The position numbers and the translations under genes are program-made. This document shows positions 1 to 43,929 of a stretch of 64,000 bases of DNA, piece by piece. The DNA is taken from the NCBI GenBank assembly GCA_963807625.1, contig CAWECN010000013.1, positions 2,258 to 66,257 of the forward strand, given 5' to 3'. The DNA is from an uncultured Gammaproteobacteria bacterium (GTDB lineage Bacteria; Pseudomonadota; Gammaproteobacteria; SZUA-229). Below the pieces are notes generated by a model. That model worked only from the letters and a program-made list of their open reading frames with translations. It was not told the origin of the DNA and did not search any database. Within the stretch, counting starts at the first letter, position 1. Every line of letters begins with the position of its first letter.

Positions 1-3000
1 GACTGGCAGGTCGGCCACCAGCAGATATCGAACTTCTTCGCCGACCGAAATATCCTGTGGTGAACTCGCCGGTGTGTTAGCCGTATCGACCGTCAGTTTG
101 GGCAGCGCGATGACCGGTATCATCTGCACGTTAGCAACCTGGTCTATCGTAGTATAGATACGTGCACGACCAGCATCATTCGGGAAGGCTGCCGTGTTAT
201 CTAGCTGTGGTGCGTTCTGATTACCAAAATTACCATCGAGACTGTCATACGACATGCTCACCGTATTTGTCAGTGTCTGTAACGGTGCGATGGTGATATC
301 TGGATCAACACGATAGTAAAAAGTTACTCTGTTCGCCGGACCCGGGTCGACCTGCAGTAACAGGGGATTGAAACTTTCGTCGACAGTAATAACTGCCGGT
401 GTACCATTGCCAATGATGTTGTCAGGTATGCTGGCAAAGAGCGCGGCTTCATCCGCTTCATCGATCAGTGTATCGCCATCGTTATCCAGACCATCGCTGG
501 AAAAATCAACGACTCCCATCAGATCGGATATATCCAGCGTATCGGTTGAAATAACATTGAAGGCCGGCGAACGAGCCGGCGTCGATGTCTGGTTCTCCAG
601 GGTGATCCGGTAGATGTAGGAGTCATTGGTATCGCCGTTACTGATGGTGTCAGCAAAGGTCGAACAGCCTGTTCCGAATCCGTTCAGGTCTTCATTACAT
701 ACTGTCTTAGTAACAATCAGGTTCGGTTCAACATCGGTCAGATCAACCCTGCGTCCCGTTTCTGCTGGATAACCGGGTGGAACAATATATCCGGCAGGAC
801 TGTTTACAGTGTCACTTACATCGATGTTGATCGGTGGTTGCGCCATACCGGCGATCGGCGCTGACTGAAACACAGCGGTAAATGATGTTTTGGCAATATT
901 GGTACTCGGGTTACCATGCAGATTAGGCGCATAGCCACCAGGCACCGGGTACGCCAGATCGACGGGGTCGTTTAACAGGCGTGTCTTAAAATCTACACGG
1001 AAGAACTCATCGGCAACGCCAATGCCACTAGCAGCATTAAAATTCCATGTTATATCCGTTTCAGAGAGAGGCGTTGTTCCAGCGCCGCCAGTTGCGCCGT
1101 TAAGTATAATGCCGCCGGTACTGGTAAAGTTATAAGGACTAGCGCCAAATGGAATAAATCCCTGGCCGTCAGGCAGGTCATCTACCACCGTAACATTCTG
1201 TACCTCGATCAGGGCAAAGCCCGGGGTTACAAAACCAAACCAGCCACCCGACTCAACACGGTAGTTACAATCTTCACCGATCTGTGAATTCAGGTTACCC
1301 GTCAATGGCGGTGTATTTGGCGGAGCAACTGCTGGCGTTAAGACATCTGCCGGTGCTGCAGGCTCCGGTAAATTATCTTCTGCACAGTACCATGCACTTT
1401 TTACCAGGTTAAAACCAAGCACCCTGGAACGGATCGCATCGAATGAATAATTGTTCGCCAGCTGCGCGACGTTTGGTGTTGTGTTCGATATCACCGGTGG
1501 TGCCGGGAAGGTCAATGCCGTACCATCAAACTGTGTGACTTCACCGAATACGTCTACACGGAATGTCAGGTCATCATCCACTGCGCCAGCTGCTTTTACA
1601 ACTGAAAAGGTGATGGTCTCTGTTGTGTTTGGTGCAATGACACCGCGATCACAGGCATATACCGCTGCCGATGCCGGAATGGCAGCAGGATCATCCCAGT
1701 GCGGATGTGGCGGCGGATTAGCAACCGGGCCAGAACAACCGGCAGGTAATGGTAGCTGAGCTGTCATCGCTTGACCAAGTGTCACATACGCCGTGTAATC
1801 ATCAGCATCATGACCACCGTTATTGGTCAGCAGCACGTTCAGGTTCAACGGGACACCAGGATCATTGGTCAGGATGAACAACGCATCTGAAATAGCAACA
1901 TCCAGGTCTTCCGGATCTGAACTGTAATTAAAAGGCTGATTACGGGTCTGTCCTTGCGGGCCGGTAGAATCAACAGCATCGAAATTAACCACCACGGTAT
2001 TCGTTAACGCCAATGCATTATCAGGATCTGTTAAAGGTGTTGTCTCTGGTGCCACATCGAGGTCGGCGACGAGGTCAAATCGTGATACTTCGATCATCAC
2101 GATACCAAAAGTGAATGAGATGATATCGCCATTACGCAACATGTCTCGTTGCTGCGGAAGATTTGCGCCAGTTGAAGTACTGGTCAATGTGAATGTCGGA
2201 TTTAAATCATCCAGTGGATCAGGGGTAGTCAATTCTGGATCATCACGGGTAAAAGTATCGATGAAACCCGGATAACCGCCATAGGCAGGTATCGTGGTAT
2301 TTGTCGGTTGACCAAATGGCTGACCGTTTTCCGGACCATAACTGTTATCCATCACATAACCGGCTGGCAGATTCGTCAAAACCGTTAACCCCTGTATCGA
2401 ACCGCCAGTCTGGTTTTCCAGCGTTATGGTCATCAGACCTTTACTGCCGAGCGGCTGCCCCGGGTTACTACCGGTTACTGTCTGCGTGATGACCAGTCCC
2501 GCTGGCACCACATCAGTACTAAGAGTGCCTGTTTCCAGTATCGTTACCCCTGGAGTAACACCGCCGGTCGATGCAGGCACTGTAATCGGACCACCAGCGG
2601 GTGAATTAACAGCACAACCCCAGGAGATATCAGCCGTGTTTACATTATTGGTATTTAAGTTAAGGATCCTGCCAACGTAATAGATAGAGACATTACTGCT
2701 GGCGGCAACATCATCAGGGTCCACGATATTTCCGAATGGATCTGCGACGTTATAGGAAGAGTTAAACGCTATACAGTTATTCCCGGGATTACCACCATTC
2801 GCAATAGCTGCGGCTTCGGCCTCGCCTTCCGTGGGACAGATATAGTTGATAGTAAAGTTACCATTGATCGAGTCATTCATCAGCAACGCTTCCATGTTTG
2901 CCAGACCTGCGTTAGCAACGTTTACCTGCCAGATGACATCATCATTGAAGCTGCCGTATACCGGGTCAGTGTAGGCTGAACCGATGGTTTGCCCGGCATC

Positions 3001-4437
3001 ATAGTTCCGTCCATCCTTTAATATGGTCGGTACCGGCTGACGGATAGGCAGTTCGAAATCGCCGGTAGCAACAGATTGCCTGGCTGCCAGACAGGACATA
3101 TCAAAATCGGCGCTGGCGTTAATATTCCTCACCGCCGCAATCAGGTTTTCAGCAACCGTGCTGCGAACACCAAAAGTGATAACGACATTTGCACCCGCCG
3201 CCAGGTTGGCCAGTTGCGGAACCTGTGCTGAGGTCCAGGTCAGCTGTGAACCGACTATACCCGGGTTACCGGGTGCTCCGGCTGGAACCGTGTTGATGGT
3301 AGTCGAATCATTAATATACTCCAGCCCGGATAACTGCAGATCTTCGACGATAGTAATATTGGTCATCGGTGCAGTTGTCGGGTTCTGTATGGTAAGGCTG
3401 ACTACACCATCACCACACAATTCACAGTAGCTGGTAGCAGCATGTGAAATAACGTTAGATAACGGGCCACTGGTAAACTGGAAGTCATACTGTACATTTA
3501 CCGGGCCAGCAGAATCTGTAGCAACACCTGTACGCTCACTCAGGCTGGCAGTGTTATCTAACACCGGGCAGGCGCTGGCTGGTGTTACCGTAGCATCGAC
3601 TGTCAGGTTTACGATCTCGCCAGCTGCGAGGTATTCAAAAGTATAATCATTCGCCCCAGGTCCGTTAGCACCCGGTGGCGGGTTCGGTACAATAAACGTT
3701 AAACCGTTGAGGTCTGCACTGAGGACATCATTCAACTGAACATCAAACAGACCACCACTGCCTGTCGAAGATACCGTGATGTTATAACTGATGACATCGC
3801 CCGTTATCACAGAAACAGTAGGCGTAGATTTGGTAATGCTTAGGCCGCCAGCATTTACATCAATATTCTGCGTAACTGGTGTGCTTGCAGCCGAACCGTT
3901 GTTACCATTGACTGTATTGTAGGTAACGTTATAACCCAGTGACTGTGTACCGGCGGCTGCACTGGTATTCGTCTCCAGACGGAATACATAGTTGTAAGTA
4001 CAACCCGGGTTAATGACGGTGCTGTTATTAGAGAATATATTGATGGTGACCGGCGTGCCAGCACCGCCACCCTGGCTAGCATTGGCATTCATATTGGGAC
4101 AGCTGCCACCGACATCGGTAACTGTTACTGACGTAGATGCCAGCGCGAAACCGGCAGGTACGGTTACCGGGATGTCGCGAATATCAAACGCCGGGTCTGG
4201 TCCGGTGTTGGTAACCGACAGAGTAAACCCGTCACCGGTATTAACTTCAGTCGCACCGTTCCATGTACCGCCGATATCCATGTAGGTACGTGCACCATCG
4301 GCAGGTGAAAAACTGGTTGATAAACCGATGTTTGGTAGGGCGAAAGCATTTTGCATCGGCCATAGCAAAACGCCGCCCACAAACAAACACTTTGCGAGCA
4401 GATTTCGATGACTAACTAGTTTTGCGATATCAAACAA
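1..4437 (-). CDS. Giant secreted repeat protein, partial (N-terminal >1470 aa in window; C-terminus lies beyond position 1). DUF11-type 'conserved repeat domain' adhesin-like surface protein.
   Basis: Manual translation of the minus strand gives one open frame from about 4437 to position 1 with no stop. It is absent from the ORF track because there is no in-window stop. The N-terminus looks like a signal peptide (FDIAKLVSHRNLLAKCLFVGGVLLWPMQNAFA/LP) if a non-ATG start (TTG at 4437) is used; the first in-frame ATG (about 4356) lies after the hydrophobic core. The body is Thr/Asn/Val/Gly/Pro/Asp-rich. It has repeated about 100-aa modules of the DUF11 pattern (e.g. LSITKSTPTVSVITGDVISYNITVSSTGSGGLFDVQLNDVL; VTKTVCNEDLNGFGTGCSTFADTISNGDTNDSYIYRITLENQTSTPARSPAFNVISTDTL). 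A Ca-binding-like DGLDNDGDTLIDEADE motif is encoded near 430-510. The + strand small ORFs 368-4285 in the track are antisense artefacts. Confidence 0.7.
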   Translation of the reverse strand, partial: MFDIAKLVSHRNLLAKCLFVGGVLLWPMQNAFALPNIGLSTSFSPADGARTYMDIGGTWNGATEVNTGDGFTLSVTNTGPDPAFDIRDIPVTVPAGFALASTSVTVTDVGGSCPNMNANASQGGGAGTPVTINIFSNNSTVINPGCTYNYVFRLETNTSAAAGTQSLGYNVTYNTVNGNNGSAASTPVTQNIDVNAGGLSITKSTPTVSVITGDVISYNITVSSTGSGGLFDVQLNDVLSADLNGLTFIVPNPPPGANGPGANDYTFEYLAAGEIVNLTVDATVTPASACPVLDNTASLSERTGVATDSAGPVNVQYDFQFTSGPLSNVISHAATSYCELCGDGVVSLTIQNPTTAPMTNITIVEDLQLSGLEYINDSTTINTVPAGAPGNPGIVGSQLTWTSAQVPQLANLAAGANVVITFGVRSTVAENLIAAVRNINASADFDMSCLAARQSVATGDFELPIRQPVPTILKDGRNYDAGQTIGSAYTDPVYGSFNDDVIWQVNVANAGLANMEALLMNDSINGNFTINYICPTEGEAEAAAIANGGNPGNNCIAFNSSYNVADPFGNIVDPDDVAASSNVSIYYVGRILNLNTNNVNTADISWGCAVNSPAGGPITVPASTGGVTPGVTILETGTLSTDVVPAGLVITQTVTGSNPGQPLGSKGLMTITLENQTGGSIQGLTVLTNLPAGYVMDNSYGPENGQPFGQPTNTTIPAYGGYPGFIDTFTRDDPELTTPDPLDDLNPTFTLTSTSTGANLPQQRDMLRNGDIISFTFGIVMIEVSRFDLVADLDVAPETTPLTDPDNALALTNTVVVNFDAVDSTGPQGQTRNQPFNYSSDPEDLDVAISDALFILTNDPGVPLNLNVLLTNNGGHDADDYTAYVTLGQAMTAQLPLPAGCSGPVANPPPHPHWDDPAAIPASAAVYACDRGVIAPNTTETITFSVVKAAGAVDDDLTFRVDVFGEVTQFDGTALTFPAPPVISNTTPNVAQLANNYSFDAIRSRVLGFNLVKSAWYCAEDNLPEPAAPADVLTPAVAPPNTPPLTGNLNSQIGEDCNYRVESGGWFGFVTPGFALIEVQNVTVVDDLPDGQGFIPFGASPYNFTSTGGIILNGATGGAGTTPLSETDITWNFNAASGIGVADEFFRVDFKTRLLNDPVDLAYPVPGGYAPNLHGNPSTNIAKTSFTAVFQSAPIAGMAQPPINIDVSDTVNSPAGYIVPPGYPAETGRRVDLTDVEPNLIVTKTVCNEDLNGFGTGCSTFADTISNGDTNDSYIYRITLENQTSTPARSPAFNVISTDTLDISDLMGVVDFSSDGLDNDGDTLIDEADEAALFASIPDNIIGNGTPAVITVDESFNPLLLQVDPGPANRVTFYYRVDPDITIAPLQTLTNTVSMSYDSLDGNFGNQNAPQLDNTAAFPNDAGRARIYTTIDQVANVQMIPVIALPKLTVDTANTPASSPQDISVGEEVRYLLVADLPV

Positions 4438-4704
4438 CGGCAAATACCAAAGTTATTACAACTAACTTTTAATTATTATTTATTTATATTTGGTAATTTG
4501 TATTTGATCGCATTTTGATAGTTTTATATGCCAAAAAAAAAGGATACCGTAGCCCGGCAGAACCCTGCATATGAAACATTTCTTTGAGTATAGTTACTAA
4601 GTTAAATTTCGCATTGAATATGTCGAAAATTGGACACTAAAAATTAATACTATTACGACACAAGAAAATACTTAGAGGATATAGCAAGTCAACTTCTTAC
4701 CAGC

Positions 4705-6057
4705 TTATGTAGCTGGTAAGAAATCGATTGGATACAGGATAGTAATAGCAGGTACGCCATCTTTGGCGCCAAAATTGAATTTTTTCACCCGGTCAGCAAT
4801 CTTCTTATCCAGCTCCGGTGCATCCATATCGCTGGAATCAACTGTACATGCTGATACTTTGCCATCGGGTTCGATAGTCAATCGCAATACCATCTTACCC
4901 TGCAAGGTTGGATTCTTACGCAACTCACGGTTATATATACGGTAGAGCGCAGATTTATAACGATCGAATACGATCTGGATCTCTTCATCGGTACGTGATG
5001 GACCCGGGCCGCTACTCAATGGCGCTTCTTCACCATAGAAATCACTGCCGATAGAACTCTCTACGCGGGAGAATTCGACACCACCCATACCATCACCCGA
5101 ACCACCTGTGTTACGACTCAGGGCAGCAGTATTGATGCCGCTGCTTGTTGTACCGACATTCGATGTCACCAGTGAGCGAGTCGTCTTCTTGGCCTTGCTG
5201 CCCTTACCGCTGATCTTGGCTTTCGAACCGAGGCTGGCGATCGGGGTGTCATCGATCAGGTCTGCGAAGTCATCCTTAAATGCCATCAGGCCGGCACGCT
5301 CAGCTTTCTTACGCGCTTTTTTAGCTTCAGGCACAGGTTTATCGTCTTTCTTCTTGGCCTTTTCTTTATCCGGTTTTTTCTCTTCCTGTTTTTCCTGCTT
5401 TGGTGGCGGAGGTGGTGGTGGTTTAGGCGCCATCAATTTCGCTAAACGTTCTGGTATTTCCACCACTTCTACACGGTCAGGTACAGGGATATCCCACATC
5501 GGTATTAGAAGACCTAGCAAGATGGAGAATAATAAAACGATCAGTAATATTTTTCTAAACTGTTTCTGATCACGATCATTTCTGTTCCATGGCATCTGCA
5601 TCGGGCGATATGGTAGTTCAACCATTTCACGCTCAATGACAAATTCTTCAAGACGCGCTTCTTCACGCTCCTGCAAGGCCAGGCTTTCATCATTTAAAAG
5701 ATTTATTTTTGCAGTAAGACTTTCGACAGTTTCGTAACGTTCACTCTGCTGGCCCTGTAATTCAGCAACTCTCGAGTCATAATTAACAACCAGGTCACGA
5801 ACACGTTTCTGCTGTTTAGAAGCGTTATCCTGGTCATAATTTTCGCCCCAGAATAAATCAGAACCGCCCAGTTTCTCCAATTTCTCCAGCTGATCACTGA
5901 TTTCACTAAGAACGGCAAAACGTTGACGCCTAGTTTTAAGCTCTTTTAATTCATCTGAAACACCGACATCTTCATTTTCAAGTGCGTTCAGACGAGTATA
6001 GGCTTCATCAATCTTACGATTGATCTCTTCCTGTTCTTGTGAAATTTCGTCAAACAC
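4705..6057 (-). CDS. TonB C-terminal-domain protein with a long cytoplasmic coiled-coil N-terminus, one TM helix and a proline-rich spacer (GltG/AgmX-like architecture).
   Basis: 450 aa. About 170 aa of charged coiled coil, then TM helix ILLIVLLFSILLGLLIPMW, then a PPPPPPP + KEK-rich spacer, a Ser/Gly/Thr linker, and a C-terminal TonB-C-like fold (IQIVFDRYKSALYRIY...GKMVLRLTIEPDGKV...ITILYPIDF). It lies immediately downstream of ExbB/ExbD genes in the same operon. Confidence 0.7.
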   Translation of the reverse strand: MFDEISQEQEEINRKIDEAYTRLNALENEDVGVSDELKELKTRRQRFAVLSEISDQLEKLEKLGGSDLFWGENYDQDNASKQQKRVRDLVVNYDSRVAELQGQQSERYETVESLTAKINLLNDESLALQEREEARLEEFVIEREMVELPYRPMQMPWNRNDRDQKQFRKILLIVLLFSILLGLLIPMWDIPVPDRVEVVEIPERLAKLMAPKPPPPPPPKQEKQEEKKPDKEKAKKKDDKPVPEAKKARKKAERAGLMAFKDDFADLIDDTPIASLGSKAKISGKGSKAKKTTRSLVTSNVGTTSSGINTAALSRNTGGSGDGMGGVEFSRVESSIGSDFYGEEAPLSSGPGPSRTDEEIQIVFDRYKSALYRIYNRELRKNPTLQGKMVLRLTIEPDGKVSACTVDSSDMDAPELDKKIADRVKKFNFGAKDGVPAITILYPIDFLPAT

Positions 6058-6075
6058 TGGAATCTACGTCAGCCT

Positions 6076-6579
6076 TTACTGTTTACTTTTTGCTTTTTGA
6101 ACAACTGCCAGGGAAATCTTTCCATAACCGGCACTGGTACAACTCGACATCACTTTTTTCATTAGATGGAATGGTACCGTTCGATGCGCCAGCACAGTCA
6201 CCTCGTTACTTTTTGCCACTGATTTAGTGCTGATGCCGATAACTTTTTTCTTCTGTAAAAGTAATCGCTGTTTTACCGGCTCGATAATAGCCGTTTTGCT
6301 ATCAATCACTTCCTGCGTGGTGATCACGGGCTCGCCCTGAACCAGTATCTGGTCCGGAGTAATCATGATAATAACTGTTTCACGCGGTTTAGCTTCAACC
6401 GTAGAGTCAGGTAATTTAATTCTTTTCGGTGGTTCCATGACATCGCTGGATGATGAATTCACCAACAGGAAAAATACCAGGATGGTAAATACATCCATCA
6501 ATGAGACCAGGTTTAAACCAGTAGCAGCTGAACCCTTGCTACTGCGCGACATGCGCTTGATGCGACGGCTTTGACTCAT
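6076..6579 (-). CDS. ExbD/TolR family biopolymer transport protein (AglS/AglQ-like)
   Basis: 167 aa. Single N-terminal TM helix (LNLVSLMDVFTILVFFLLV) plus a periplasmic domain typical of ExbD/TolR. Its ATGA start overlaps the stop of the upstream ExbD gene. Confidence 0.8.
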   Translation of the reverse strand: MSQSRRIKRMSRSSKGSAATGLNLVSLMDVFTILVFFLLVNSSSSDVMEPPKRIKLPDSTVEAKPRETVIIMITPDQILVQGEPVITTQEVIDSKTAIIEPVKQRLLLQKKKVIGISTKSVAKSNEVTVLAHRTVPFHLMKKVMSSCTSAGYGKISLAVVQKAKSKQ

Positions 6580-7133
6580 GGTGCGTCGCCTATAGAAATA
6601 TCAGGAAACAGAACGACCTGCTGCAGCACATCTGCTTCACCATCCGCACCCGGCTGACGAACAAATGTTGCTCGTACAGCATCCATAATTCTGATTAACG
6701 CACGATATTCAATGTCCGGTTCCATTAATACAACCGCATCTGTTTTATCCGGATATTTACCTTTTATTTTTACCAGGTATTCAGAAAGCAGTTCCATGTC
6801 ATATAGTTTAGTGACATCGAAGTCACCCTCTTCGTCAACACTGAGTGGGACATCCTCTTCTTTTAGCAACGGAAAACGGGCCAGTACCTGTTTACCATTA
6901 CCAATCTCCAGGCCTTTCTGTCGAACGATAACCTCTATACTAAGTTGCGGCTTTTTACTGTCAGCGGAACCATCACCCGCAGGCAAACTTAACTCAAGAA
7001 TGGTAATTCTTGAGAACACAGCAGTTATCAGCAGGAACGGAACAAGCACAACCATCAAGTTAAGGAAGGTTGTAATATTAAGTTCAGCCGGCTCCTTCTG
7101 CAGCCGCTTGTAATGGTGTCTTCGTCTAGCCAT
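6576..7133 (-). CDS. ExbD/TolR family protein (second copy)
   Basis: Single TM helix (ITTFLNLMVVLVPFLLITAVF) plus an ExbD-like periplasmic domain. The likely start is MARRRHHY (ATG at 7133) rather than the track start at 7175. It overlaps the exbB-like stop by a few nt, which suggests translational coupling. Confidence 0.75.
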   Translation of the reverse strand: MARRRHHYKRLQKEPAELNITTFLNLMVVLVPFLLITAVFSRITILELSLPAGDGSADSKKPQLSIEVIVRQKGLEIGNGKQVLARFPLLKEEDVPLSVDEEGDFDVTKLYDMELLSEYLVKIKGKYPDKTDAVVLMEPDIEYRALIRIMDAVRATFVRQPGADGEADVLQQVVLFPDISIGDAP

Positions 7134-7794
7134 TCTTCGCAGCCAGTGCCGCTTGACGTTTTGCGAAATCAGCAATCAGGTTTAATGTTTTCACTGATGC
7201 CATCTCAAGACTATCAATAATCTCCGTTGTTTTAGAAGAAATTATTGCGTGAACAATTAACAGAGGGATAGCTGCCATCAGACCAAAAGCTGTAGTATTC
7301 ATAGCTACCGAAATACTTGCAGAAAGCAAATCCGCTTTTTCAGCAGGGTCTGCATTAGCTACCGCAGTAAAAGCTTCAATGAGGCCCATAATCGTACCTA
7401 GCAGACCAAGCAATGTGCAGATATTTGCAAACAGTGCAATAAATGGTGTGCGTTTTTCCAATTGAGGAATAATCTCCATCATACTTTCTTCCATGGCGAT
7501 CTCGATATCATCGCGGCGACGAACCGAACCTTGTCTTGCCAGCCCCATGTTCAACAAACGGGCGATAGCTGATTTATCTTCAGAAATGGAGTCACGTGCC
7601 GAATCAAATTCACCTTCTTCAAGTAAAGGGTGCACAGTGTCCCAGACTCCTTTATTTGTCTTGCCCACACCCGACAATTTGATATATCGCTCAATACATA
7701 TCGCTACACCAAAAGAAAATATTATTAATATCGGGTACATAAACGTACCACCGGTTTGGAAAAATTGCACAATAGTCAGGATAGTATCCATCAT
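7126..7794 (-). CDS. MotA/TolQ/ExbB proton-channel family protein (AglR-like)
   Basis: 222 aa with three TM helices in TolQ/ExbB topology (YPILIIFSFGVAICIERY; FIALFANICTLLGLLGTIMGLIEAF; AMNTTAFGLMAAIPLLIVHAII). Confidence 0.85.
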   Translation of the reverse strand: MMDTILTIVQFFQTGGTFMYPILIIFSFGVAICIERYIKLSGVGKTNKGVWDTVHPLLEEGEFDSARDSISEDKSAIARLLNMGLARQGSVRRRDDIEIAMEESMMEIIPQLEKRTPFIALFANICTLLGLLGTIMGLIEAFTAVANADPAEKADLLSASISVAMNTTAFGLMAAIPLLIVHAIISSKTTEIIDSLEMASVKTLNLIADFAKRQAALAAKNG

Positions 7795-7818
7795 GTACTC
7801 CTCATTTTAAATCGCTTG

Positions 7819-8127
7819 TTATTGTACGTTCTTACCATGACTCAACTCGTAAAAATCAAGTTCACGTAAAAACACTTCTTTGTCTACAGGGCGCATACTG
7901 TCATCTAACAGTCCTGAATTTAAACTTGTAGCCACACCTACTTCAGAATTTTGCCAGGGTACGATATAAAGTGACTTAGGCGCCTCTTTATTACCGATGA
8001 TTGAAATACCTGATAACTCTTTTACTTCAGTATCTGCTTTTTTTTCTTCGGCAAAAACATTCTGTAACATTGATACCTGTATCACCAGGTAATACAAAAC
8101 TGTATTGATTATAGTTTTAATTTTCAT
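7819..8127 (-). CDS. Small secreted/periplasmic protein (about 100 aa) of unknown function; GltF-like by position
   Basis: The ORF gives a signal-peptide-like N-terminus if started at MKIKTIINTVLYYLVIQVSMLQNVFA (aa 15 of the track ORF). It is wedged between the TPR lipoprotein gene and the exbB-like gene on the same strand. Confidence 0.45.
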   Translation of the reverse strand: MKIKTIINTVLYYLVIQVSMLQNVFAEEKKADTEVKELSGISIIGNKEAPKSLYIVPWQNSEVGVATSLNSGLLDDSMRPVDKEVFLRELDFYELSHGKNVQ

Positions 8128-8207
8128 AATGTCATCACCTTGTGCAATTATTATCAGCCAAGAATACAAAAAACCATCACGTAAATATTTTTCTTAATGG
8201 TTATAAT

Positions 8208-8810
8208 TTATTTTCCCAGGCGCCGCTTTACATCAACGACCCAGATAGCCACGGTCTTATCACCCGGTTCCAATTCCAGGTAAACCTCGAACTGCTGCAG
8301 CGCACACTCATAATCATGCATATACAGATCGCATAAAACACCCAGGTTTCTTATCGCTGGCAGGTATTCGGGGTGTTCTTTGATAGCATTCTCATATGCC
8401 GTTCTCGCCGCCTTGAACTTGCCGGACTTTCTATAAAGCAGACCCAGTTCATTATTTGCCACCGGGTGTCCGATATCCAGCTTTAACGCGCTGATCAGGT
8501 TTTCTTCTGCTGCCTTGGTATCACCTAACCTGTTATAAGCGATCGCGATATTCACATAAGGTGCCGGCAGACGTTTCTCTCGTTCGATAACTGATTTTAA
8601 AACGGATACCGCCTGTGCATTTTTTTCTTCCTGCATCAGGACGATAGCTCCCTTAAAATCGTCCTCCACATCCGAGTCTATATCCAGGTGGCGAGTCGTT
8701 TTCTTTTCATAACTGACGACTGTATCCTCTCTAACATCGCCGCCACCAGCGCAGGAAAACAAGCTTAACGACACGATAAAAACTGATAGATATTTCGAGA
8801 CCTTCATCAT
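8208..8810 (-). CDS. TPR-repeat lipoprotein (about 200 aa)
   Basis: Lipobox LSLFSCAGG follows MMKVSKYLSVFIVS, so the likely start is the internal Met and the track start at 8852 is too long. TPR-like helical repeats are present (AAEENLISALKLDIGHPVANNELGLLYRKSGKFKAARTAYENAIKEHPEY...). Confidence 0.65.
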   Translation of the reverse strand: MMKVSKYLSVFIVSLSLFSCAGGGDVREDTVVSYEKKTTRHLDIDSDVEDDFKGAIVLMQEEKNAQAVSVLKSVIEREKRLPAPYVNIAIAYNRLGDTKAAEENLISALKLDIGHPVANNELGLLYRKSGKFKAARTAYENAIKEHPEYLPAIRNLGVLCDLYMHDYECALQQFEVYLELEPGDKTVAIWVVDVKRRLGK

Positions 8811-8844
8811 ATTTCTACTACCTGTCATAGTCATGCCGTACATA

Positions 8845-11800
8845 TCAACCACCGACCGCTGCCTGTTCAGTAACAGCTTTCTTATTATCTATTTCATTTT
8901 TTTCTTTAGTATTCTCTTTATCTTTTCTATCTTTTACCTGTGGCCCCGGCTGAATCAGGGTGATGATCGCGCTACCCTTTTCTGTCTTGGCATATCGCGC
9001 AGGTAATAGCACAGCCAGCTTGGCAATACTCTTATCGATCCACTCGTTATAGATACCTACATCGAGAAGCTCCATATTCTTCTCATGAACATTGATGGCT
9101 TTTTCTTCAAACGGGTAAACCTGCTCTTCGATCACCAGCTCATATTGCTCCAGTTCTTCATCACCCAGATTCGCCGGCCTCTCAGATTCGAGTAATGCCA
9201 CACTAAACTCGTAGTAGATCTCAGCGATAAAGAAAGTAGCTGCTGCCGTAACTTCACCAACCTGGTACTCGACCAGTTTCGTATAAGTGTCGATAGCCGT
9301 ACGCATACGCTGCTTTTTCTTCTTCAGGTTTTTCTTGAACGGCTTGACGAGCGCAACTTTTTTAAATTCCTCAAGCTTTGGTTCAGCCAGTACCAGTGAA
9401 GCCTTGGCGGCAAGGAACCTGGTTCGGTCGGTCCTGCCGTTACCCGCTACTGCATCTCCAGCTACGATCTGTTTTAACTGGAAAACATACTGTTTACGCT
9501 CACCTTTCTCCAGGTATATGTCAGCCATTTTCTGACGTGCCTCGATGGCACCTTCGATCGGCACAGGGAAATAATCAACTATCTTGGTATACACGAGCAG
9601 CGCTTTGCTCTTCTCACCTGCTTTCACATATAACTCGGCCGCCTGGTTTAACGCTTCACGCCTTAGCGCCTTATCATCCGGATTCTGTTTTTCGATGCGC
9701 TCAAACTCGACAGCAGACTTAAGGAATTTCCCATCTTCTTTATAGACCACCGCAAGCTTCTTAGTTATATCCTTGTTCAGTTTATTGTCTGGATAAAGTT
9801 TCCTGAATCCTTCGAGTACGGTAGCGACTGCCCCCCATTGTTTTAACAACATGAGCGACGCGGCTGCATCATACTCTGCGGTCGGCCTGATCTTCGAATT
9901 TGGAGCAACCTTTGCAACACGTAGGAAATGCTCGGCAGCAACTTTATGGTCACCCAGCTTACGCGCCTGCTCACCCTGCTTGTATACAGAAGCAGCAAGG
10001 TTTTCTGTCAACGAATTATAACTCTTGTCCTTTTTATCGGTCAGTGCCAGTGTCTGCACGTATGCATCTTCGGCTTCTTTATAGTTCGCTATATCAAACG
10101 AGGCATGCGCCACGACCATCCATGAAGAGCGCAAAAGCTTCTTGTCAGCATTCGGATACACCTTGATGACCCGGCGGCCATAGGTGATCGCCTGCTCATA
10201 ATCTTCCAGTGCATACATATCATCGACCGCTGCCACCAGTACTACCGCTGCATGTTTATGCGTTGGAAAATAATCAGTAAACTTCAACGAGCTACGGATG
10301 ATCTCACGCTTGATTATATTGCGCTGTGACTGATTGGCGACTTTCAGGTGTTCGCGATAAGCATAGACCGCAGCATAACCGGCACTCGCCGAATCTTCAT
10401 GTGTAAGATAGTTATAGGCAGTACGTTCGTATTCAGTCGCTGCACCAAGATAATCTTTATGTTCAAGCAACAGTCCGGCTAACTGGTTGTTAAGTTTAGG
10501 TGCCTGCTTCTCTTCCGGGAACGAAGACAGGTATTCGCGGTACCAGAATATCGCCTCCTGGTAATTTTCTTCTTTCTGTTTCACCAGGCGTCTATCCTGG
10601 TACAAAGCATGATAGTGGTTTGCCAGGTCAATGAGGTTTGATTTTAAGAATGCCAGCACGGTCGGATTGGCATTGATATCAAAGAATGTCCAGTAGTTTG
10701 AATTCAGGGCATATGTCTTAGAGAATTCTTTCTTGGCATCGACAACCAGGCGAGGAAAACCACCCTTCTTATAGATCTCGATCACGCGGATATTAAAGTA
10801 TGGTGACTCCTTTGAGATCGGATTCCTGCCGATGTAGGTCTCGTAAGATTTAGCAGCATCAGAGTAGCGGCGTTTCGTCAGGTAGTACTCGCCAAGGTGA
10901 CTATAGATACTCGCCTCGTAAAAGCGGTGCCCGTGTTTATCAAAAAATTCAACGATCGAGTCAGCGCCACCGAGGTATGAGAAACTGAGACTGATCACAC
11001 GGTATGTGTCATCGATGCGTTTTTTCTCGATCTTGTTTTCTATACTATCGAGGTCATATCCGTTATCGACCTTGTAATCAAGCATCCTGATATAGTCGCG
11101 CAATGCTTCCTCATATAGATCCTGTTTAAAGTATGCCCAGCCCTGTTTATACAATGCCAGCTCATAAAACTCAGAACCCACACCGGCATCGATCACAGCC
11201 TGGTAAGACTCTTCGGAATCCAGATACTTCTTACGTGTGAAAAAATACTCTGCTCGACGGAACTGTGCCTCATCGATGTGTCTAGACTGCGGGTACTGAC
11301 TGATCAATTGCTCCAGGGTTTGCATCGCCACTTCTATCTGCCCGGTCTCTTCATAGGCTCGGGACAACTGGTAGAGCACCTGATCATTACGCTCGAACAA
11401 AGGATATTTCTTTAACAGGCCTTTATACAACTCGATAGCTTCTTTGGCACCCGCTGTCTGCAGATCATCAGCATCACCCGGTTTCTGCCCGGGGACATCG
11501 ATCTTTTTCTTCTTGGGTTTGCCCAAATCGATCTTCTTGCCTGCACGCTCACTGAACTCTTTCTCGCTCTCACTAATGTCGGCGATCGGGCTACCTTTTG
11601 CAGTAACACTTTCTTTCTCTTCACCTGCAGCAACAGGCACGAAACTGGTATCAGGTGTACTTATATCTGTCGCCTGAGAGGCACTATCAGCAACCGGTGT
11701 CACTTCTTTGGCATCAGGTATATCTCCAGTTGCCTGTTTGACCTGCTCTGCCTGCTCTTGAGCACGGGCAACATCTTCAACCTCATACTCTTTTTGAATC

Positions 11801-12048
11801 TTCAGATCGGCAAGCCGGCGTAGCGCTTCCGGCGTCATCTCTGTCTCAGGTGTTTCCTTGAGAAACTTCTCATAACTGGCCATCGCCTTCTCAAGGCTAC
11901 CGTCAACTTTTTCCTGCTTCAACTCGAACTTGACGTCGCTCAAACTGCCAAGCGTGCCTTCGTTATTCGTAGTCGCACAGGAGATCAACAACATCGATGC
12001 TGTTATCAGTGCCGGTAGTGAGAAGTTATCAAGTCGCATCATCTTCAA
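8845..12048 (-). CDS. Large TPR-repeat lipoprotein (1067 aa), GltD/GltE-like by context
   Basis: N-terminal lipoprotein signal (SMLLISCATTNNEG). An acidic, low-complexity region is followed by more than 15 TPR-like repeats over about 800 aa, and the C-terminus is Lys/Glu-rich. It is co-directional and tightly packed with the neighbouring genes. Confidence 0.75.
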   Translation of the reverse strand: MKMMRLDNFSLPALITASMLLISCATTNNEGTLGSLSDVKFELKQEKVDGSLEKAMASYEKFLKETPETEMTPEALRRLADLKIQKEYEVEDVARAQEQAEQVKQATGDIPDAKEVTPVADSASQATDISTPDTSFVPVAAGEEKESVTAKGSPIADISESEKEFSERAGKKIDLGKPKKKKIDVPGQKPGDADDLQTAGAKEAIELYKGLLKKYPLFERNDQVLYQLSRAYEETGQIEVAMQTLEQLISQYPQSRHIDEAQFRRAEYFFTRKKYLDSEESYQAVIDAGVGSEFYELALYKQGWAYFKQDLYEEALRDYIRMLDYKVDNGYDLDSIENKIEKKRIDDTYRVISLSFSYLGGADSIVEFFDKHGHRFYEASIYSHLGEYYLTKRRYSDAAKSYETYIGRNPISKESPYFNIRVIEIYKKGGFPRLVVDAKKEFSKTYALNSNYWTFFDINANPTVLAFLKSNLIDLANHYHALYQDRRLVKQKEENYQEAIFWYREYLSSFPEEKQAPKLNNQLAGLLLEHKDYLGAATEYERTAYNYLTHEDSASAGYAAVYAYREHLKVANQSQRNIIKREIIRSSLKFTDYFPTHKHAAVVLVAAVDDMYALEDYEQAITYGRRVIKVYPNADKKLLRSSWMVVAHASFDIANYKEAEDAYVQTLALTDKKDKSYNSLTENLAASVYKQGEQARKLGDHKVAAEHFLRVAKVAPNSKIRPTAEYDAAASLMLLKQWGAVATVLEGFRKLYPDNKLNKDITKKLAVVYKEDGKFLKSAVEFERIEKQNPDDKALRREALNQAAELYVKAGEKSKALLVYTKIVDYFPVPIEGAIEARQKMADIYLEKGERKQYVFQLKQIVAGDAVAGNGRTDRTRFLAAKASLVLAEPKLEEFKKVALVKPFKKNLKKKKQRMRTAIDTYTKLVEYQVGEVTAAATFFIAEIYYEFSVALLESERPANLGDEELEQYELVIEEQVYPFEEKAINVHEKNMELLDVGIYNEWIDKSIAKLAVLLPARYAKTEKGSAIITLIQPGPQVKDRKDKENTKEKNEIDNKKAVTEQAAVGG

Positions 12049-12049
12049 C

Positions 12050-14161
12050 CTATCGACCTAACAACTGTTGCTTGAAGGATGACGAGCCAGTAGCCTCATC
12101 ATTTTCCACTTCGGAATCAACCTGTGGTTTTTCCTCTATCACTTCCCTTGTCTCGACCGGTTTCTCTTCTGTAACCTCGGGTTGTTTATCGACATTCTCA
12201 GGTACACCACCGCTCTGTTTAGCGATCTCGGCCTCCAGTTGTGCTTTTGTTGCACGGTCATAACTTTCGGCCAGCGCGAAACGTGCCTTTATCTGGTACT
12301 CTTCCAGGCGTTTCCTGCGACGGTCGAGTTCATTGACGGCCATGGTTTCCAGCAGACGACCCTGTTTCGCCATAACACCTTTGAGCGTTCTCTGTGCGGT
12401 GAACAGGCGCGTTCTCAACTGGCGGATTGGAATGGTGTAACCTTCATAACTCTGTGTCGCTGCCTGCCTTGTTCGTATAAAGGAGTTGTATGTTATCTTC
12501 AGCTGCTTGATGATCTCGTCTAGTGAGATCAGATTATTATATGCATCGGTGAGGCGCTGATCATATTCGCTACGCACCTGCCATGTCACGATACCGCGTA
12601 TCCGCTTAACACGCAGCTGCACATCCTGGCTCACCTGTGAAGAATTGATCGCAATCTTTTCTTCCAGCGCTGCGATGACATCCAGCGCCTGGCGCTCGGT
12701 CGATGTCGCCAGGTATTCAGGGCGCGGTGCGATCAGCATATTTTTCAGCTTTGTCGCAAGGTTCTCCCGCTGTTCCAGGCGTAGCTTAATCCTGGCGTCC
12801 AGTTTAATAAATTTCTTTTCTACGACCGGCAGTAGCGGTTCCTGGTAAGCGCGTCTTATCTCGATCATCTCTTCATAGACCCTTAGATCCTCCAGCCATT
12901 TATCGATATGGTGGCGTAGTTCAGCCAGGTCTTTGTAATTTTTGTACGACTCCTGAAAATCATGTGACGCCATCAGCTCCAGGATGTAACGCGTTTCTGG
13001 TGTGTCAGGCAGCTCTCGTAAATTAACCACCCAGTTTTTATCCTTGCTTGATTTCTCATCGAGTAAAGCAGTAAGAAACTTGCCTTTACGGATCGTTTTG
13101 ATGGAATCATCCAGGCTGCCGATCTCTTCTGCGAAAACGTCCATCGCATGGCTATAAAGATTGGCGGCATTACCGTGAGCATTTAATTTTCCGTAAGCAT
13201 ACGGAACGGCCATCAATACTTCCTGTACAGAGTAATTAGTTTCAGCACGTTTATGAAGCATCGACCATGGTACCAGCGCACGGTCAAACTGACCCTCGGC
13301 AACAGCGACCCAACCTGCACCGAGCAGAGCCCGGTTTGAATATGGCCCGTCGAGACGGACACGTTCAAAATATATCTTTGCCTTTTTTGCATTGGCTTTA
13401 TCGAGATAATAATAAGCCAGTTTGATATTCGTCTTGTCCTTTAGTGTAAGCAGGCCGTTATCACTGAACTCCATTTTCCCGAGTTCGTCAAGTACACGCA
13501 GACCTTCCTTCTCATTACCGCTCTGGATCAAGGCGATACCCAGGTTATATATGACATAACCTTTGAGTATCTTCTCTCCTTTCAGCCCCTGTAAGATATC
13601 GACTGCCTGGGTAAACTGTCCGGTATCGATACTCGCTAATGCCTTCAGGTAAGCGACATCTGTCTTAAATGTTTCAGGTTCTTTACCGCGCAATACATCG
13701 AGTGAATATTTTTCCTGGTAGCGTGATCTATCCGGCTCATCACGGATAAGCTCAAGCGCATACAGGGTGCTCGCAGGATCATTCTTCTTATAGAAAACCC
13801 TTGCCAGGGCGAGGGCCGCCTGATTACGTATCGCAAGATCGATGCCTTCACCCAGCACTGCCTGTATCGCACGGCCAGCACGCTGGTTCATGCGGTATTG
13901 CATCTCCAGCTCACCGACCGAGAACTCGGCCTGTGTCAGATGACTGTGAAAGGGATCGAGACCGGATTCATCCAGTTCATAATATTGCGACAACTCTGTA
14001 TCGAGCCGTGCCAGTGCATCGAAGTGCAGGTCCTGGTATGCGTAATACAGGACTTCGCCGAAATACAGGTCTCGCAATTCGACATCCTTCAGGCCGCTCG
14101 CCGCATATAGCGAAGAGCTGCATAAGAAAACAGAGAAGATAAGGGTAAAACGGAGCAACAT
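12050..14161 (-). CDS. Secreted TPR-like helical-repeat protein (703 aa) with a C-terminal coiled coil
   Basis: Signal peptide MLLRFTLIFSVFLCSSSLYAASG. TPR-like repeats, then a long coiled-coil C-terminal third (RRKRLEEYQIKARFALAESYDRATKAQLEAEIAKQ...). Its stop abuts the start of the 1067-aa gene. Confidence 0.6.
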   Translation of the reverse strand: MLLRFTLIFSVFLCSSSLYAASGLKDVELRDLYFGEVLYYAYQDLHFDALARLDTELSQYYELDESGLDPFHSHLTQAEFSVGELEMQYRMNQRAGRAIQAVLGEGIDLAIRNQAALALARVFYKKNDPASTLYALELIRDEPDRSRYQEKYSLDVLRGKEPETFKTDVAYLKALASIDTGQFTQAVDILQGLKGEKILKGYVIYNLGIALIQSGNEKEGLRVLDELGKMEFSDNGLLTLKDKTNIKLAYYYLDKANAKKAKIYFERVRLDGPYSNRALLGAGWVAVAEGQFDRALVPWSMLHKRAETNYSVQEVLMAVPYAYGKLNAHGNAANLYSHAMDVFAEEIGSLDDSIKTIRKGKFLTALLDEKSSKDKNWVVNLRELPDTPETRYILELMASHDFQESYKNYKDLAELRHHIDKWLEDLRVYEEMIEIRRAYQEPLLPVVEKKFIKLDARIKLRLEQRENLATKLKNMLIAPRPEYLATSTERQALDVIAALEEKIAINSSQVSQDVQLRVKRIRGIVTWQVRSEYDQRLTDAYNNLISLDEIIKQLKITYNSFIRTRQAATQSYEGYTIPIRQLRTRLFTAQRTLKGVMAKQGRLLETMAVNELDRRRKRLEEYQIKARFALAESYDRATKAQLEAEIAKQSGGVPENVDKQPEVTEEKPVETREVIEEKPQVDSEVENDEATGSSSFKQQLLGR

Positions 14162-14163
14162 GT

Positions 14164-14703
14164 TTACCAGTCTTTAAAAGAGATCGTTTGATCAGATGAA
14201 CTGCTGCCTGATATCTGTATCTCTACAAACTTGGGCCCGACAGCTTTTGTTACTGTAAAATTTTCACTGCGTTGATATTCATTACCGGATTTTGATCGAC
14301 CGATAAAACTGGCAACCAGCTGATGATCTCCGGTTTTTATATTACCGGTATAAATGCGCTGCACACCACCCGCCCTCAATGCCTCGATCTCTTTGTAGGT
14401 ATAGAGGTGATGCGCTACGACCTTGTTATCCATCTTGATCTGCACAGAATCCAGTACGAAACCTTCATCGCCTGCGACCGAGACGAACAGTGATACCTGG
14501 GTATTAGAGGGAAATAATAATTTTTCTTCCAGTCGTGACAGTTCCGAGGTCAGATCCAGCACATCTTTTTTGATATCCTGCACCTGCTCATCGAGCCCCT
14601 TGATCTGTTCCTGGGTGACTTCAGCCGCATGCAATGATAATGGAACAGTGTTTATTAATAACAAAACTGGAACAAAAAATCTGGCGAATAAATTTTTCAG
14701 CAT
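14164..14703 (-). CDS. Periplasmic protein (179 aa) with a signal peptide and an N-terminal coiled coil; first gene of the operon
   Basis: Signal peptide MLKNLFARFFVPVLLLINTVPLSLHAA, then a coiled coil (IKGLDEQVQDIKKDVLDLTSELSRLEEKL) and a beta-rich C-terminus. A 260-bp AT-rich promoter region lies upstream, divergent from dgkA. Confidence 0.5.
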   Translation of the reverse strand: MLKNLFARFFVPVLLLINTVPLSLHAAEVTQEQIKGLDEQVQDIKKDVLDLTSELSRLEEKLLFPSNTQVSLFVSVAGDEGFVLDSVQIKMDNKVVAHHLYTYKEIEALRAGGVQRIYTGNIKTGDHQLVASFIGRSKSGNEYQRSENFTVTKAVGPKFVEIQISGSSSSDQTISFKDW

Positions 14704-14963: not shown

Positions 14964-15338
14964 ATGGCTAAAACAGGCGCAACAGGATTCACCCGTATTA
15001 TCAATGCCGCAGGTTATTCGTGGGCAGGATTGAAAGCAGCTTATACTAACGAGGCGGCGTTTCGGCAGGAGCTCTGGCTGGTTATCGTACTGTCACCCGT
15101 CGCTGTAATCTTTGGACCGAGTTATGCGGATAAAGCCGTCTTATTAGCAAGCCTGATATTCATTCTCCTTATCGAGATTCTCAATTCAGCGCTGGAAGCA
15201 GTGGTCGACCGCTTCGGCGATGAGATACATCCATTGTCGGGACGTGCCAAGGACATGGGGTCAGCAGCAGTATTACTGGCTTTCTTTATCACTGGCCTGA
15301 TCTGGTTTTCAGTTTTTAGTGAAACACTCGGGTTTTAA
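14964..15338 (+). CDS. dgkA: Diacylglycerol kinase
   Basis: 124 aa with three TM helices. It has the characteristic DgkA motifs (EAAFRQE, NSALEAVVDRFGDE, SGRAKDMGSAAVL). Confidence 0.9.
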   Translation: MAKTGATGFTRIINAAGYSWAGLKAAYTNEAAFRQELWLVIVLSPVAVIFGPSYADKAVLLASLIFILLIEILNSALEAVVDRFGDEIHPLSGRAKDMGSAAVLLAFFITGLIWFSVFSETLGF

Positions 15339-15608: not shown

Positions 15609-16340
15609 ATGAAAATCAAACAACTACTCTGTCTCGTAGCACTATCAACGCCGTTAACAAGTAATGCCGACACACTGGCGATTTCAGCCGGTGGCGGTGT
15701 ATGGAACACCTCATCCAGCGGTACCTTTGGTAAAACTAGTGATCCTGCCCAGGTCGATGTTAAAGATAACCTGTTCTGGGGTGACGAATCACAGGGCTAC
15801 CTGTTTGCCACCCTGGAACACCCTATACCTATCATCCCTAACGTCAAGTTGATGTACACCAAGGTCGACCAGTCTGGCAGTGGTAACACAAACTTTGACT
15901 ATGATGGAATCAATTATAGTGGCGATGTCTCTAATGATTTCTCATTGGAAACCATGGACCTGATCGCTTACTACGAAGTATTAGACAATGTCGTCAGTCT
16001 TGATATCGGTCTTAATATACGTAAATTAGACACTGACTTTTCGATTACCAGTACAGGCAACAGCACAACTGACTCGCTCAGTGAAACGGTACCGATGTTA
16101 TATGCACTGGTCGGCGGCTCACCTATACCGGATCTGATCATCAGTGGTGAAATAAGTTATGTAGCGTTTTCTGGTAGCAGTGTTTCTGATATCACCGCAA
16201 AAATCGCCTACACCACCAACTTTTTTGTTGGTTTCGAAGCAGGTTACCGTAGCCAGAAATATGAGTTCGATGATGTTTCAGGCAATGACGCTAACCTGAC
16301 CATAGACGGTTTATTCGCAGGCGCTTACGTAAAATTCTAA
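15609..16340 (+). CDS. Outer-membrane beta-barrel protein (small, about 8-strand porin-like)
   Basis: Signal peptide MKIKQLLCLVALSTPLTSNA. It has alternating amphipathic beta-strand pattern and the C-terminal aromatic terminus ...GAYVKF typical of OM beta-barrels. Confidence 0.6.
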   Translation: MKIKQLLCLVALSTPLTSNADTLAISAGGGVWNTSSSGTFGKTSDPAQVDVKDNLFWGDESQGYLFATLEHPIPIIPNVKLMYTKVDQSGSGNTNFDYDGINYSGDVSNDFSLETMDLIAYYEVLDNVVSLDIGLNIRKLDTDFSITSTGNSTTDSLSETVPMLYALVGGSPIPDLIISGEISYVAFSGSSVSDITAKIAYTTNFFVGFEAGYRSQKYEFDDVSGNDANLTIDGLFAGAYVKF

Positions 16341-16377: not shown

Positions 16378-16422
16378 AGATTATCGAGCAATCTGCAGCG
16401 GCATTTTAATTTATGTCAGTTA
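16378..16422 (+). terminator. Rho-independent terminator hairpin after the OM-protein gene, between convergent genes
   Basis: Perfect 15-bp inverted repeat atgccgctgcagatt / aatctgcagcggcat followed by ttttaattt. Confidence 0.6.
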
Positions 16423-17549: not shown

Positions 17550-17552
17550 GTG

Positions 17553-43764: not shown

Positions 43765-43902
43765 GTAGAAACTACACTCTCAGGGGTAGACTAATGCGAG
43801 TATTCTACCGGACGATCTACTCCTGATACATACGTTTTACTAATTGTTGCGAAATTAGAAACAGATAAAAGGACAGAGAGAAAGCTCACACATATCGACT
43901 CG

Positions 43903-43923
43903 AGTTTTTACTCTGACCCCAAG
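43903..43923. repeat. Copy 2 of the 18-bp direct repeat (tttttactctgaccccaa)
   Basis: Near-identical to 40505-40522. Together the two copies bracket the lipoprotein gene and the P-type ATPase gene. Confidence 0.6.
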
Positions 43924-43929
43924 TATTCA

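Follow-up and report, generated by a model that had tools for sequence, protein, structure and literature searches.

The window analysed here, a stretch of 64,000 nucleotides (nt) from an uncultured Gammaproteobacteria bacterium (contig CAWECN010000013.1), carries on its minus strand an operon of nine genes, g1 to g9, for TolQ/TolR-like, tetratricopeptide-repeat (TPR) and TonB-like envelope proteins; on the evidence of sequence comparison, the operon is a member of the Agl-Glt/Nfs-type core complex, a known yet functionally uncharacterised family. Our comparison of related loci reveals that this family is split into two clades, which differ in the length of the GltG-like transducer encoded by g9, and that the long-form clade, to which the window belongs, is strictly coupled to genes for a giant CLIPPER fibre protein and an OmpA-tethered barrel. 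The two-clade split and this coupling are new here, as are a conserved Asp/Asn asymmetry of the stator and the ninth gene, g1. By analogy with the Myxococcus xanthus motor and with TonB systems, we lean towards the reading that the operon encodes a proton-driven, TonB-like machine that serves the giant fibre and its barrel.

The split emerged from a search for relatives of g9 among 1.84 billion cluster representatives, which returned 3,838 proteins, 385 of them with E < 1e-30. These proteins have two architectures: a long form of about 450-500 amino acids (aa) with a cytoplasmic N-terminal domain, and a short form of about 300-330 aa without it. Eighty long-form loci were sampled from species-representative genomes and 80 short-form loci from metagenomes, and gene order across them was compared by BLAST of the window proteins against all open reading frames (ORFs) of the fetched loci. 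In a neighbour-joining tree built on the g9 region common to both forms, 81 of 81 long and 79 of 80 short proteins separate cleanly; on this tree, the long and short forms are separate clades and the long-form clade is monophyletic. The closest long-form relatives belong to metagenome-assembled genomes of uncultured Thiotrichaceae or Gammaproteobacteria, and other carriers include Microbulbifer, Thiohalomonadaceae, Alkalilimnicola, Gallionellales, Nitrospirota, Desulfosarcina and Geobacteraceae.

The coupling was scored in loci with at least 3 kb of sequence downstream, as an ORF on the same strand, 900 aa or longer, with its start no more than 3 kb from the g9 stop. Such a giant ORF is present in 54 of 62 long-form loci, where most exceed 3,000 aa and run beyond the 10-kb flank, and in 0 of 34 short-form loci. 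Four of the eight exceptions (L059, Nitrospirota; L071 and L072, Desulfosarcina; L075) have a homologue of the barrel gene, 51-57% identical, that ends just upstream of g1; the remaining four end before the upstream position. All 58 informative long-form loci thus adjoin either the giant ORF or its partner barrel gene, 54 downstream and four upstream of the operon, and the giant/barrel module is absent from all 34 short-form loci (Fisher p about 1e-18 to 1e-26). The long-form loci with the module span Gammaproteobacteria, Desulfobacterota, Nitrospirota and betaproteobacteria; the linkage is kept down to about 38-45% g9 identity, across at least four phylum- or class-level groups, and after a shift of the module from downstream to upstream of the operon. 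The pattern is one of long retention, which has outlasted a rearrangement and spans distant taxa; as all long-form loci belong to a single clade, the counts do not represent independent events.

Five independent contigs carry the whole arrangement: stator genes, a GltG-like gene of 471-476 aa, a CLIPPER giant gene of 1,630-2,221 aa, and an OmpA/barrel gene of 1,689-1,696 aa where called whole. Four of them have the start of the barrel gene overlapping the stop of the giant gene, whereas in L165 a gap of 5 nt lies between the two, and the genes that flank this 11-gene unit differ and are unrelated in each contig. Their g9 proteins are 38-39% identical to that of the window over the full length; in L164 the identity over the C-terminal half is 56%.

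No comparable partner accompanies the short form: among 55 loci, no downstream family recurs in more than six. In the short form the nine genes are widespread without any giant gene; the link to the giant protein put forward in the original prediction is strongly supported by conserved synteny, but for the long form only. Because the short-form module exists without these partners, we regard fibre and barrel as one cargo module and the nine-gene core as a general energy transducer. The literature searched, coverage of which is incomplete, contains no report that connects the core complex with a giant protein.

The giant gene of the window, g10 (1..4437, minus strand), is the next gene downstream on the same strand, as predicted; its ORF starts about 267 nt beyond g9 (280 bp in the prediction), probably with a TTG at 4437, and runs off the start of the window. 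The fragment covers the N-terminal 1,479 residues of a giant, Sec-dependent secreted DUF11/CLIPPER repeat protein, with a signal peptide and matches to DUF11 (36.3 bits) and TIGR01451 (25.6 bits). In related loci, too, g9 is followed on its own strand by ORFs longer than 2,800 aa. Complete homologues, such as those of 3,066 aa in L026 and 2,844 aa in L080, contain five to nine DUF11/CLIPPER domains and three to five TIGR04226 isopeptide-forming fimbrial domains, together with DUF7619, CLIPPER_2 and SdrD_B domains. All of them start with a signal peptide; the N-terminal end is variable and the last ~400 residues are strongly conserved. Judged by profile match, the giant protein is of the CLIPPER/DUF11 fibrillar type and has putative isopeptide-type domains. 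Tandem DUF11/CLIPPER, SdrD_B and similar domains are described as hallmarks of fibrillar adhesin stalks in a recent paper (Protein Sci 2025, PMC12617251), and the giant protein shares with these adhesins tandem DUF11/CLIPPER, CLIPPER_2, DUF7619 and SdrD_B domains. In the characterised Acinetobacter CLIPPER adhesin (PMC12617251), an OmpA-like anchor is fused C-terminally; the present system differs in that its OmpA domains belong to a separate barrel protein and in that a Tol/Ton-like motor operon is attached.

That barrel protein is encoded by the gene after the giant gene in the loci of relatives, and is a secreted protein of the OmpA family. Its full-length homologues, of ~1,690 aa and with 4,363 relatives, have three OmpA domains, of the peptidoglycan-binding kind, followed by ~1,150 residues that are predicted, from structural modelling, to form a very large beta-barrel. 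TonB-dependent transporters are among the best structural matches, which also include Deinococcus SlpA; the matches are generic to large barrels (LptD, MtrB, PapC, porins), and no Plug or TonB_dep_Rec Pfam hit was found in the protein at E up to 5. A further outer-membrane component of the system, the OmpA-domain giant barrel, lies beyond the window. In two loci (L081 11200-11700 and L082 11200-11600) the barrel gene is split, probably by an assembly indel, with one ORF of about 500 aa and another of about 1,150 aa. We considered and rejected separate OmpA and 1,150-aa genes in these loci, given that full-length homologues are single proteins of ~1,690 aa and that a frame break is seen.

All nine ORFs of the operon, from 14703 to 4705 on the minus strand, were found at the positions originally predicted, tightly packed with start/stop overlaps: the junctions are gaps of 1-38 nt or overlaps, with an overlap of 4 nt between g7 and g8. 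The divergent diacylglycerol kinase gene dgkA (14964-15338, plus strand) marks the upstream border. Where enough sequence is available, the order from g1 to g9 is kept in essentially every one of the 160 related loci, and for this reason the arrangement is far beyond chance. Pfam and NCBIfam profile searches also agree with the domains predicted for the motor proteins (MotA_ExbB, two ExbD, TonB_C).

The assignment to the Agl-Glt/Nfs core follows from profile matches of g9 to the AgmX/PglI and GltG models and from gene order and protein sizes, in agreement with the original prediction. Luciano et al. 2011 (PLoS Genet, PMC3169522) define a core of gltC, gltD, gltE, gltG, aglR, aglQ and aglS plus one extra gene, found as a single locus of unknown function in several Gammaproteobacteria, Methylibium and Geobacter; the paper also gives GltF as myxobacteria-specific and Group A genes as restricted to Myxococcales and Bdellovibrionales. 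Among the clusters of its Table S3 are CJA_3312 (GltG, 323 aa), 3313 (AglS, 173), 3314 (AglQ, 181), 3315 (AglR, 231), 3318 (GltD, 964) and 3319 (GltC, 660), and the order and sizes in the window match CJA_3312-3319 as well as the Maqu, Sde, Sfri and Tgr7 clusters in that table. In later papers (2013, 2020), the function of the core is still described as unknown, with speculation about transport or secretion. The window operon is thus like the published gammaproteobacterial core in having the same order (GltC, GltD, GltE, small gene, AglR, AglQ, AglS, GltG), similar protein sizes, a single locus and an unknown function. It is unlike that core in three respects: g9 has 450 aa and an N-terminal hairpin, whereas most of the 2011 examples have 321-334 aa (Tgr7_0536 has 535 aa); g1 precedes the GltC-like gene; and the locus is linked to the giant CLIPPER and OmpA/barrel genes.

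Like the Agl-Glt gliding and Agl-Nfs spore-coat machines of M. xanthus, the operon has one TolQ-like and two TolR-like proteins, a GltG-type transducer with an AgmX/PglI end and a TPR scaffold. Unlike Agl-Glt, the locus is without the GltA/B/H/K barrels, GltF, GltI, GltJ and CglB; searches of the operon and its neighbours gave neither a Group A gene (gltA, B, H, K, F, I, J) nor an adhesin of the CglB type. On its cytoplasmic side g9 carries a helical hairpin instead of the FHA domain of M. xanthus GltG, and the partners are a single giant OmpA-tethered barrel and a surface isopeptide-type fibre rather than a vWA lipoprotein.

The proteins encoded by the first five genes are secreted or lipid-anchored. 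The product of g1 (14164..14703, minus; 179 aa) begins with a signal peptide that ends in LHA/AE, after which come a coiled coil and, behind it, a beta-rich domain; the protein matched no family in Pfam or NCBIfam profile searches. A g1 homologue stands directly upstream of g2 in long- and short-form loci, at 37-94% identity by BLAST, and g1 is a conserved ninth member of the module, missing from the 2011 list of core genes. The secreted 703-aa product of g2 (12050..14161, minus), conserved across related loci by BLAST, is weakly TPR-like in its N-terminal half, with sub-threshold Pfam and NCBIfam matches, and coiled-coil and acidic in its C-terminal half; because its place and size match those of GltC homologues (624-660 aa), it was assigned to the GltC position. 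The 1067-aa lipoprotein g3 (8845..12048, minus; lipobox LLISC) occupies the GltD position, where GltD homologues of published clusters have 952-964 aa (Table S3, Luciano et al. 2011), and matches TPR_2 with 74 bits and a YbgF-type TPR model with 92.9 bits against a cut-off of 90.1. The GltE position is taken by g4 (8208..8852, minus), a 214-aa ORF that encodes a TPR lipoprotein of ~200 aa from a probable start near 8810 (lipobox SLFSC). A lipobox-like motif is found in 47 of 60 long-form homologues of g3 and in 65 of 73 of g4. The small secreted product of g5 (7819..8169, minus; 116-aa ORF, probable start MKIKT near 8127) had no family in Pfam or NCBIfam searches and is conserved at the same position in both subfamilies by BLAST; its counterpart in the published core is the 'additional gene', the one without a myxobacterial homologue.

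Three TPR proteins had been predicted. Many TPR matches in profile searches bear this out for g3 and g4, but the 703-aa g2 reaches only sub-threshold similarity. The naming of the trio as GltD/E/F has to be replaced by GltC/D/E, GltF being myxobacteria-specific (Luciano et al. 2011). These names go by position and size: no NCBIfam GltC or GltD model matched g2 or g3, and g4 scores 31 bits against the GltE model, whose cut-off is 225.

The stator is encoded by g6 (7126..7794, minus; 222 aa), g7 (6576..7175, minus; 199 aa) and g8 (6076..6579, minus; 167 aa). The TolQ/ExbB/MotA-family protein g6, in the AglR position, has three helices and matches MotA_ExbB with 91.6 bits (Pfam); conservation across loci extends to its TolQ-like channel residues T134, T168 and P177. 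The two TolR/ExbD paralogues of the prediction are likewise confirmed, g7 and g8 matching Pfam ExbD with 50.7 and 56.5 bits, respectively. They differ at the site of the transmembrane Asp. In g8 it is kept (LMDVF), as in 78 of 78 long-form and 64 of 64 aligned short-form homologues; in g7 Asn stands in its place, as it does in 74 of 78 long-form homologues and 53 of 56 short-form ones. The expected conservation of the ExbD Asp thus applies to g8, which always has Asp, but not to g7, which nearly always has Asn. This single-Asp signature fits a TolQ5:TolR heterodimer with one protonatable Asp, and the published AlphaFold model of M. xanthus likewise has an AglR5:AglQ:AglS heterodimer. Separately, in Desulfosarcina loci the GltG-like gene is followed at once by another TolQ-like gene, with 65-66% identity to g6 (L062 6753-7475, L072 11474-12238), in the place of the giant gene in other lineages.

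The transducer g9 (4705..6057, minus; 450 aa) is a single-pass protein with a cytoplasmic N-terminal hairpin. Its AlphaFold model consists of a helical hairpin at residues 2-144 (predicted local distance difference test score, pLDDT, 81-93), a membrane helix at 162-187, a disordered linker that is Pro/Lys-rich and Gly/Ser-rich, and an end domain; the long cytoplasmic N-terminus and the Pro-rich spacer of the original prediction are thereby borne out. The end domain, at 356-447, matches the AgmX/PglI C-terminal domain model NF033768 with 68.8 bits (cut-off 40), TonB_C with 25.2 bits (cut-off 24.6) and TIGR01352 with 27.3 bits (cut-off 27.1). The NCBIfam GltG model covers residues 147-447, from the membrane helix to the C-terminus, with 58 bits (E 5e-16), a match that points to homology below equivalog level. 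In the model the end domain, although of low confidence, has the order helix-strand-strand-helix-strand, which is compatible with a TonB C-terminal domain. The best PDB match of the N-terminal domain is the Rad50 zinc-hook coiled coil (E 0.002), with the hook CPVC aligned to the hairpin apex, and may be a mere coiled-coil resemblance. At that apex, residues about 66-71 read DLFWGE (window 5845-5862), and LFWG is conserved across long-form proteins. A 631-aa protein (P0281) was rejected as a true GltG comparator, as it is another variant that scores 52 bits against a cut-off of 650.

An alignment of intergenic regions revealed a promoter-/operator-like element between g9 and the giant gene (4587..4636, minus strand). 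It consists of the palindrome TGTCCAATTTTCGACA at 4636-4621 (minus) and, after exactly 28 nt, TATACT at 4592-4587. The exact palindrome with this fixed spacing occurs in the window, L001, L002, L008 and L064, that is, in the closest relatives only, and with one base different in L006 and L010; the background is 14 matches in 1.3 Mb. We take the palindrome to have the form of a CRP/FNR-family site, and the element as a whole looks like a CRP/FNR-family-type operator with a −10 box, which suggests regulated transcription of the giant gene from a promoter of its own. Because of this conserved element, the giant gene is not simply part of the operon. Scans for sigma-70 promoters and terminators gave hits at chance level, and this also applies to hits such as the terminator-like hairpin at 4559-4545 in the leader.

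Our preferred reading, that the operon is a proton-driven machine serving the fibre and its barrel, starts from gene content, domain identities, the Asp/Asn asymmetry, synteny and the class of the barrel, all of which are observed. The nine gene products would form an envelope-spanning transducer of the Tol/Ton/Agl type, driven by the proton-motive force (PMF). A TolQ-like pentamer around a TolR-like heterodimer, with one Asp-bearing partner, would make a 5:2 inner-membrane stator, which would act through proton flow on the membrane helix of g9; the linker and TonB-C-like end of g9 would reach across the periplasm into the GltD-like and GltE-like lipoproteins and the GltC-like scaffold. Force would then pass through the TPR scaffold to the OmpA-tethered barrel, and the energy of the motor may thread or extrude the fibre through the barrel or gate its exposure, while the conserved C-terminal module of the fibre would stay at the barrel or scaffold. 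For the stoichiometry, the contacts and the act of export, we rely on analogy with the AglR5QS-GltG-GltD/E/C model of M. xanthus and with TonB systems. In the structural model of the M. xanthus machine, the GltG linker lies in a crevice of GltD, GltE sits on GltD, and GltC forms a bridge to outer-membrane barrels by strand addition.

The type IX secretion system comprises GldK/L/M/N, the SprA translocon and cargo with a C-terminal-domain signal; it couples a proton-driven 5:2-type motor, GldLM, to a huge barrel, SprA, and a giant adhesin, SprB. To this system of Bacteroidota the likeness is one of functional analogy only, a motor coupled across the periplasm to a barrel and a giant adhesin; no homology connects the components, and the only hit, weak and confined to TPR, is to PorW/SprE with 26.8 bits against a cut-off of 250. 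We tentatively suggest that the long-form core, the OmpA-tethered barrel (~30 or more strands) and the isopeptide-type fibre may together constitute a PMF-powered export/actuation system, in effect a new type of secretion system, a proposal that we regard as possible and still doubtful. That such a system is widespread in marine/sediment Gammaproteobacteria, Desulfobacterota and Nitrospirota is conceivable, and is put forward with similar reserve. If real, the system would also give an idea of the ancestral job out of which the gliding and spore-coat motors of Myxococcus arose.

Several observations weigh against the preferred reading. Synteny shows coupling, not what the coupling does; the barrel gene and the end of the giant gene are outside the window, and their presence here is inferred from relatives. 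The nine-gene module is found without fibre and barrel in the whole short-form clade and is not intrinsically a fibre machine, and the monophyly of the long-form clade means that the association may stem from one acquisition. The giant gene stands behind a promoter-like element of its own and a gap of 267 nt, and need not be co-transcribed with the operon. At the molecular level, neither a TonB box nor a plug was identified in the barrel protein, and the scores of g9 in hidden Markov models of the TonB_C type are at or barely over threshold. The TonB-C domain predicted for this 450-aa protein is upheld by profile scores over the cut-offs, but less clearly as a fold: the AlphaFold end domain is of low confidence (pLDDT 40-58), and TonB matches of the g9 profile against PDB sequences are insignificant (E about 0.6-0.8).

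A surface-motility machine, in which the motor would move the barrel-fibre complex laterally or helically, as in Agl-Glt or type IX/SprB, with gliding as the result, appears unlikely. The operon shares homology with the gliding-motor core of M. xanthus, the long-form hairpin could dock an intracellular track as the FHA domain of GltG docks GltI, and the closest relatives are uncultured Thiotrichaceae, a family that includes gliders. Against this, Luciano et al. consider the core alone unlikely to drive motility and most carriers not to be known gliders (PMC3169522); moreover, the locus contains no myxobacterial Group A component, and the three OmpA domains on the barrel imply a peptidoglycan tether, which is hard to square with long-range movement.

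The relation of the parts to TolQ and TolR also allows for a structural envelope tether of the Tol-Pal kind, with the OmpA-barrel and giant protein as an S-layer-/sheath-like structure assembled independently, which we judge improbable. The GltD-like g3 passes the YbgF/CpoB TPR cut-off (92.9 vs 90.1), the barrel model resembles Deinococcus SlpA, a tether from outer membrane to cell wall, and the short-form module occurs alone in variable contexts, like a housekeeping system. Yet no TolA, TolB or Pal was found in the locus; TolQ and TolR equivalog scores are far below their cut-offs (56.7 vs 221, and 24.5 or less vs 127), with only the TPR part of CpoB/YbgF matching; and the strict long-form linkage, kept through permutation of gene order, argues for a specific partnership. 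With ExbB-ExbD-TonB and Tol-Pal the operon has in common the MotA_ExbB, ExbD and TonB_C-like families and, presumably, a 5:2 proton-driven mechanism; it departs from both in its two TolR paralogues, their Asp/Asn asymmetry and the three large TPR proteins.

TonB-dependent import, with the barrel as an energised importer and the giant protein as its surface capture partner, is very unlikely. It would make sense of the TonB-C-like end domain, the ExbB/ExbD-like stator and the TonB-dependent transporters among the best structural matches of the barrel; those matches, however, are generic to large barrels, the barrel lacks a Plug or TonB_dep_Rec hit, and giant isopeptide stalks are typical of fibrillar adhesins. 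In line with the original prediction, the locus is not a canonical iron-uptake locus: no TonB-dependent receptor was found among 16 non-operon ORFs scanned against Pfam, including the largest in the window, and no Fur box with three or fewer mismatches in the 64 kb. These results, and equivalog scores far below the cut-offs (ExbB 40.5 vs 206; ExbD 26.3 or less vs 123-216; no TonB equivalog), led us to reject the iron-uptake reading. The Vibrio TonB2/TtpC system comprises TtpB, a large TtpC (~450 aa, with a MotA_ExbB domain), ExbB2, a single ExbD2, TonB2 and TtpD. The operon is not of this type either: its only MotA_ExbB protein has 222 aa, it has two ExbD paralogues, and its 450-aa protein is without a MotA_ExbB domain.

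Highly improbable, finally, is adjacency without functional coupling, in which a separate adhesin locus was inherited beside the operon: the promoter-like element and 267-nt gap of the giant gene speak for it, and a single ancestral juxtaposition in a monophyletic clade could explain many loci, but the linkage is retained to about 38-45% g9 identity across at least four phylum- or class-level groups and after the module moved from downstream to upstream, with flanking genes that differ in every contig.

Other features of the window deserve mention. A methyltransferase similar to cyclopropane-fatty-acid synthases (CMAS, 283 bits; 16416-18929, minus) is encoded beside an FAD-dependent oxidoreductase, and together with dgkA these genes form a membrane-lipid neighbourhood upstream of the operon. 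A HAMP-GGDEF-EAL protein, of the kind involved in cyclic di-GMP turnover, is encoded ~11 kb from the operon (25642-27729, minus). A 599-aa protein (38655-40454, plus) has a Peptidase_C1 domain of the papain family, which is uncommon in bacteria. For two plus-strand ORFs, at 30802-32658 (618 aa) and 15609-16340 (243 aa), the Pfam thresholds applied gave no family. The G+C content, ~0.47 on average over the window, is 0.369 at 52001-54000, where two minus-strand ORFs of ~250 aa lie, and 0.551 at 42001-44000, inside a P-type cation ATPase gene.

In conclusion, the strict, rearrangement-resistant linkage of the long form gives a concrete cargo hypothesis for the Agl-Glt core in non-gliders, a question raised in 2011, 2013 and 2020, and Microbulbifer species, such as M. 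harenosus (NZ_CP185860.1, 97725-119104) and M. agarilyticus, Alkalilimnicola ehrlichii and Thiohalomonas are cultured carriers. For the study of asymmetric 5:2 stators, the conserved Asp/Asn heterodimer offers a natural test case. If the operon is indeed a proton-driven machine for the giant fibre and its barrel, it would represent a new way in which Gram-negative bacteria draw on proton energy at the inner membrane to display very large proteins that are covalently stabilised, and the origin of the myxobacterial gliding motor would be explained as well.

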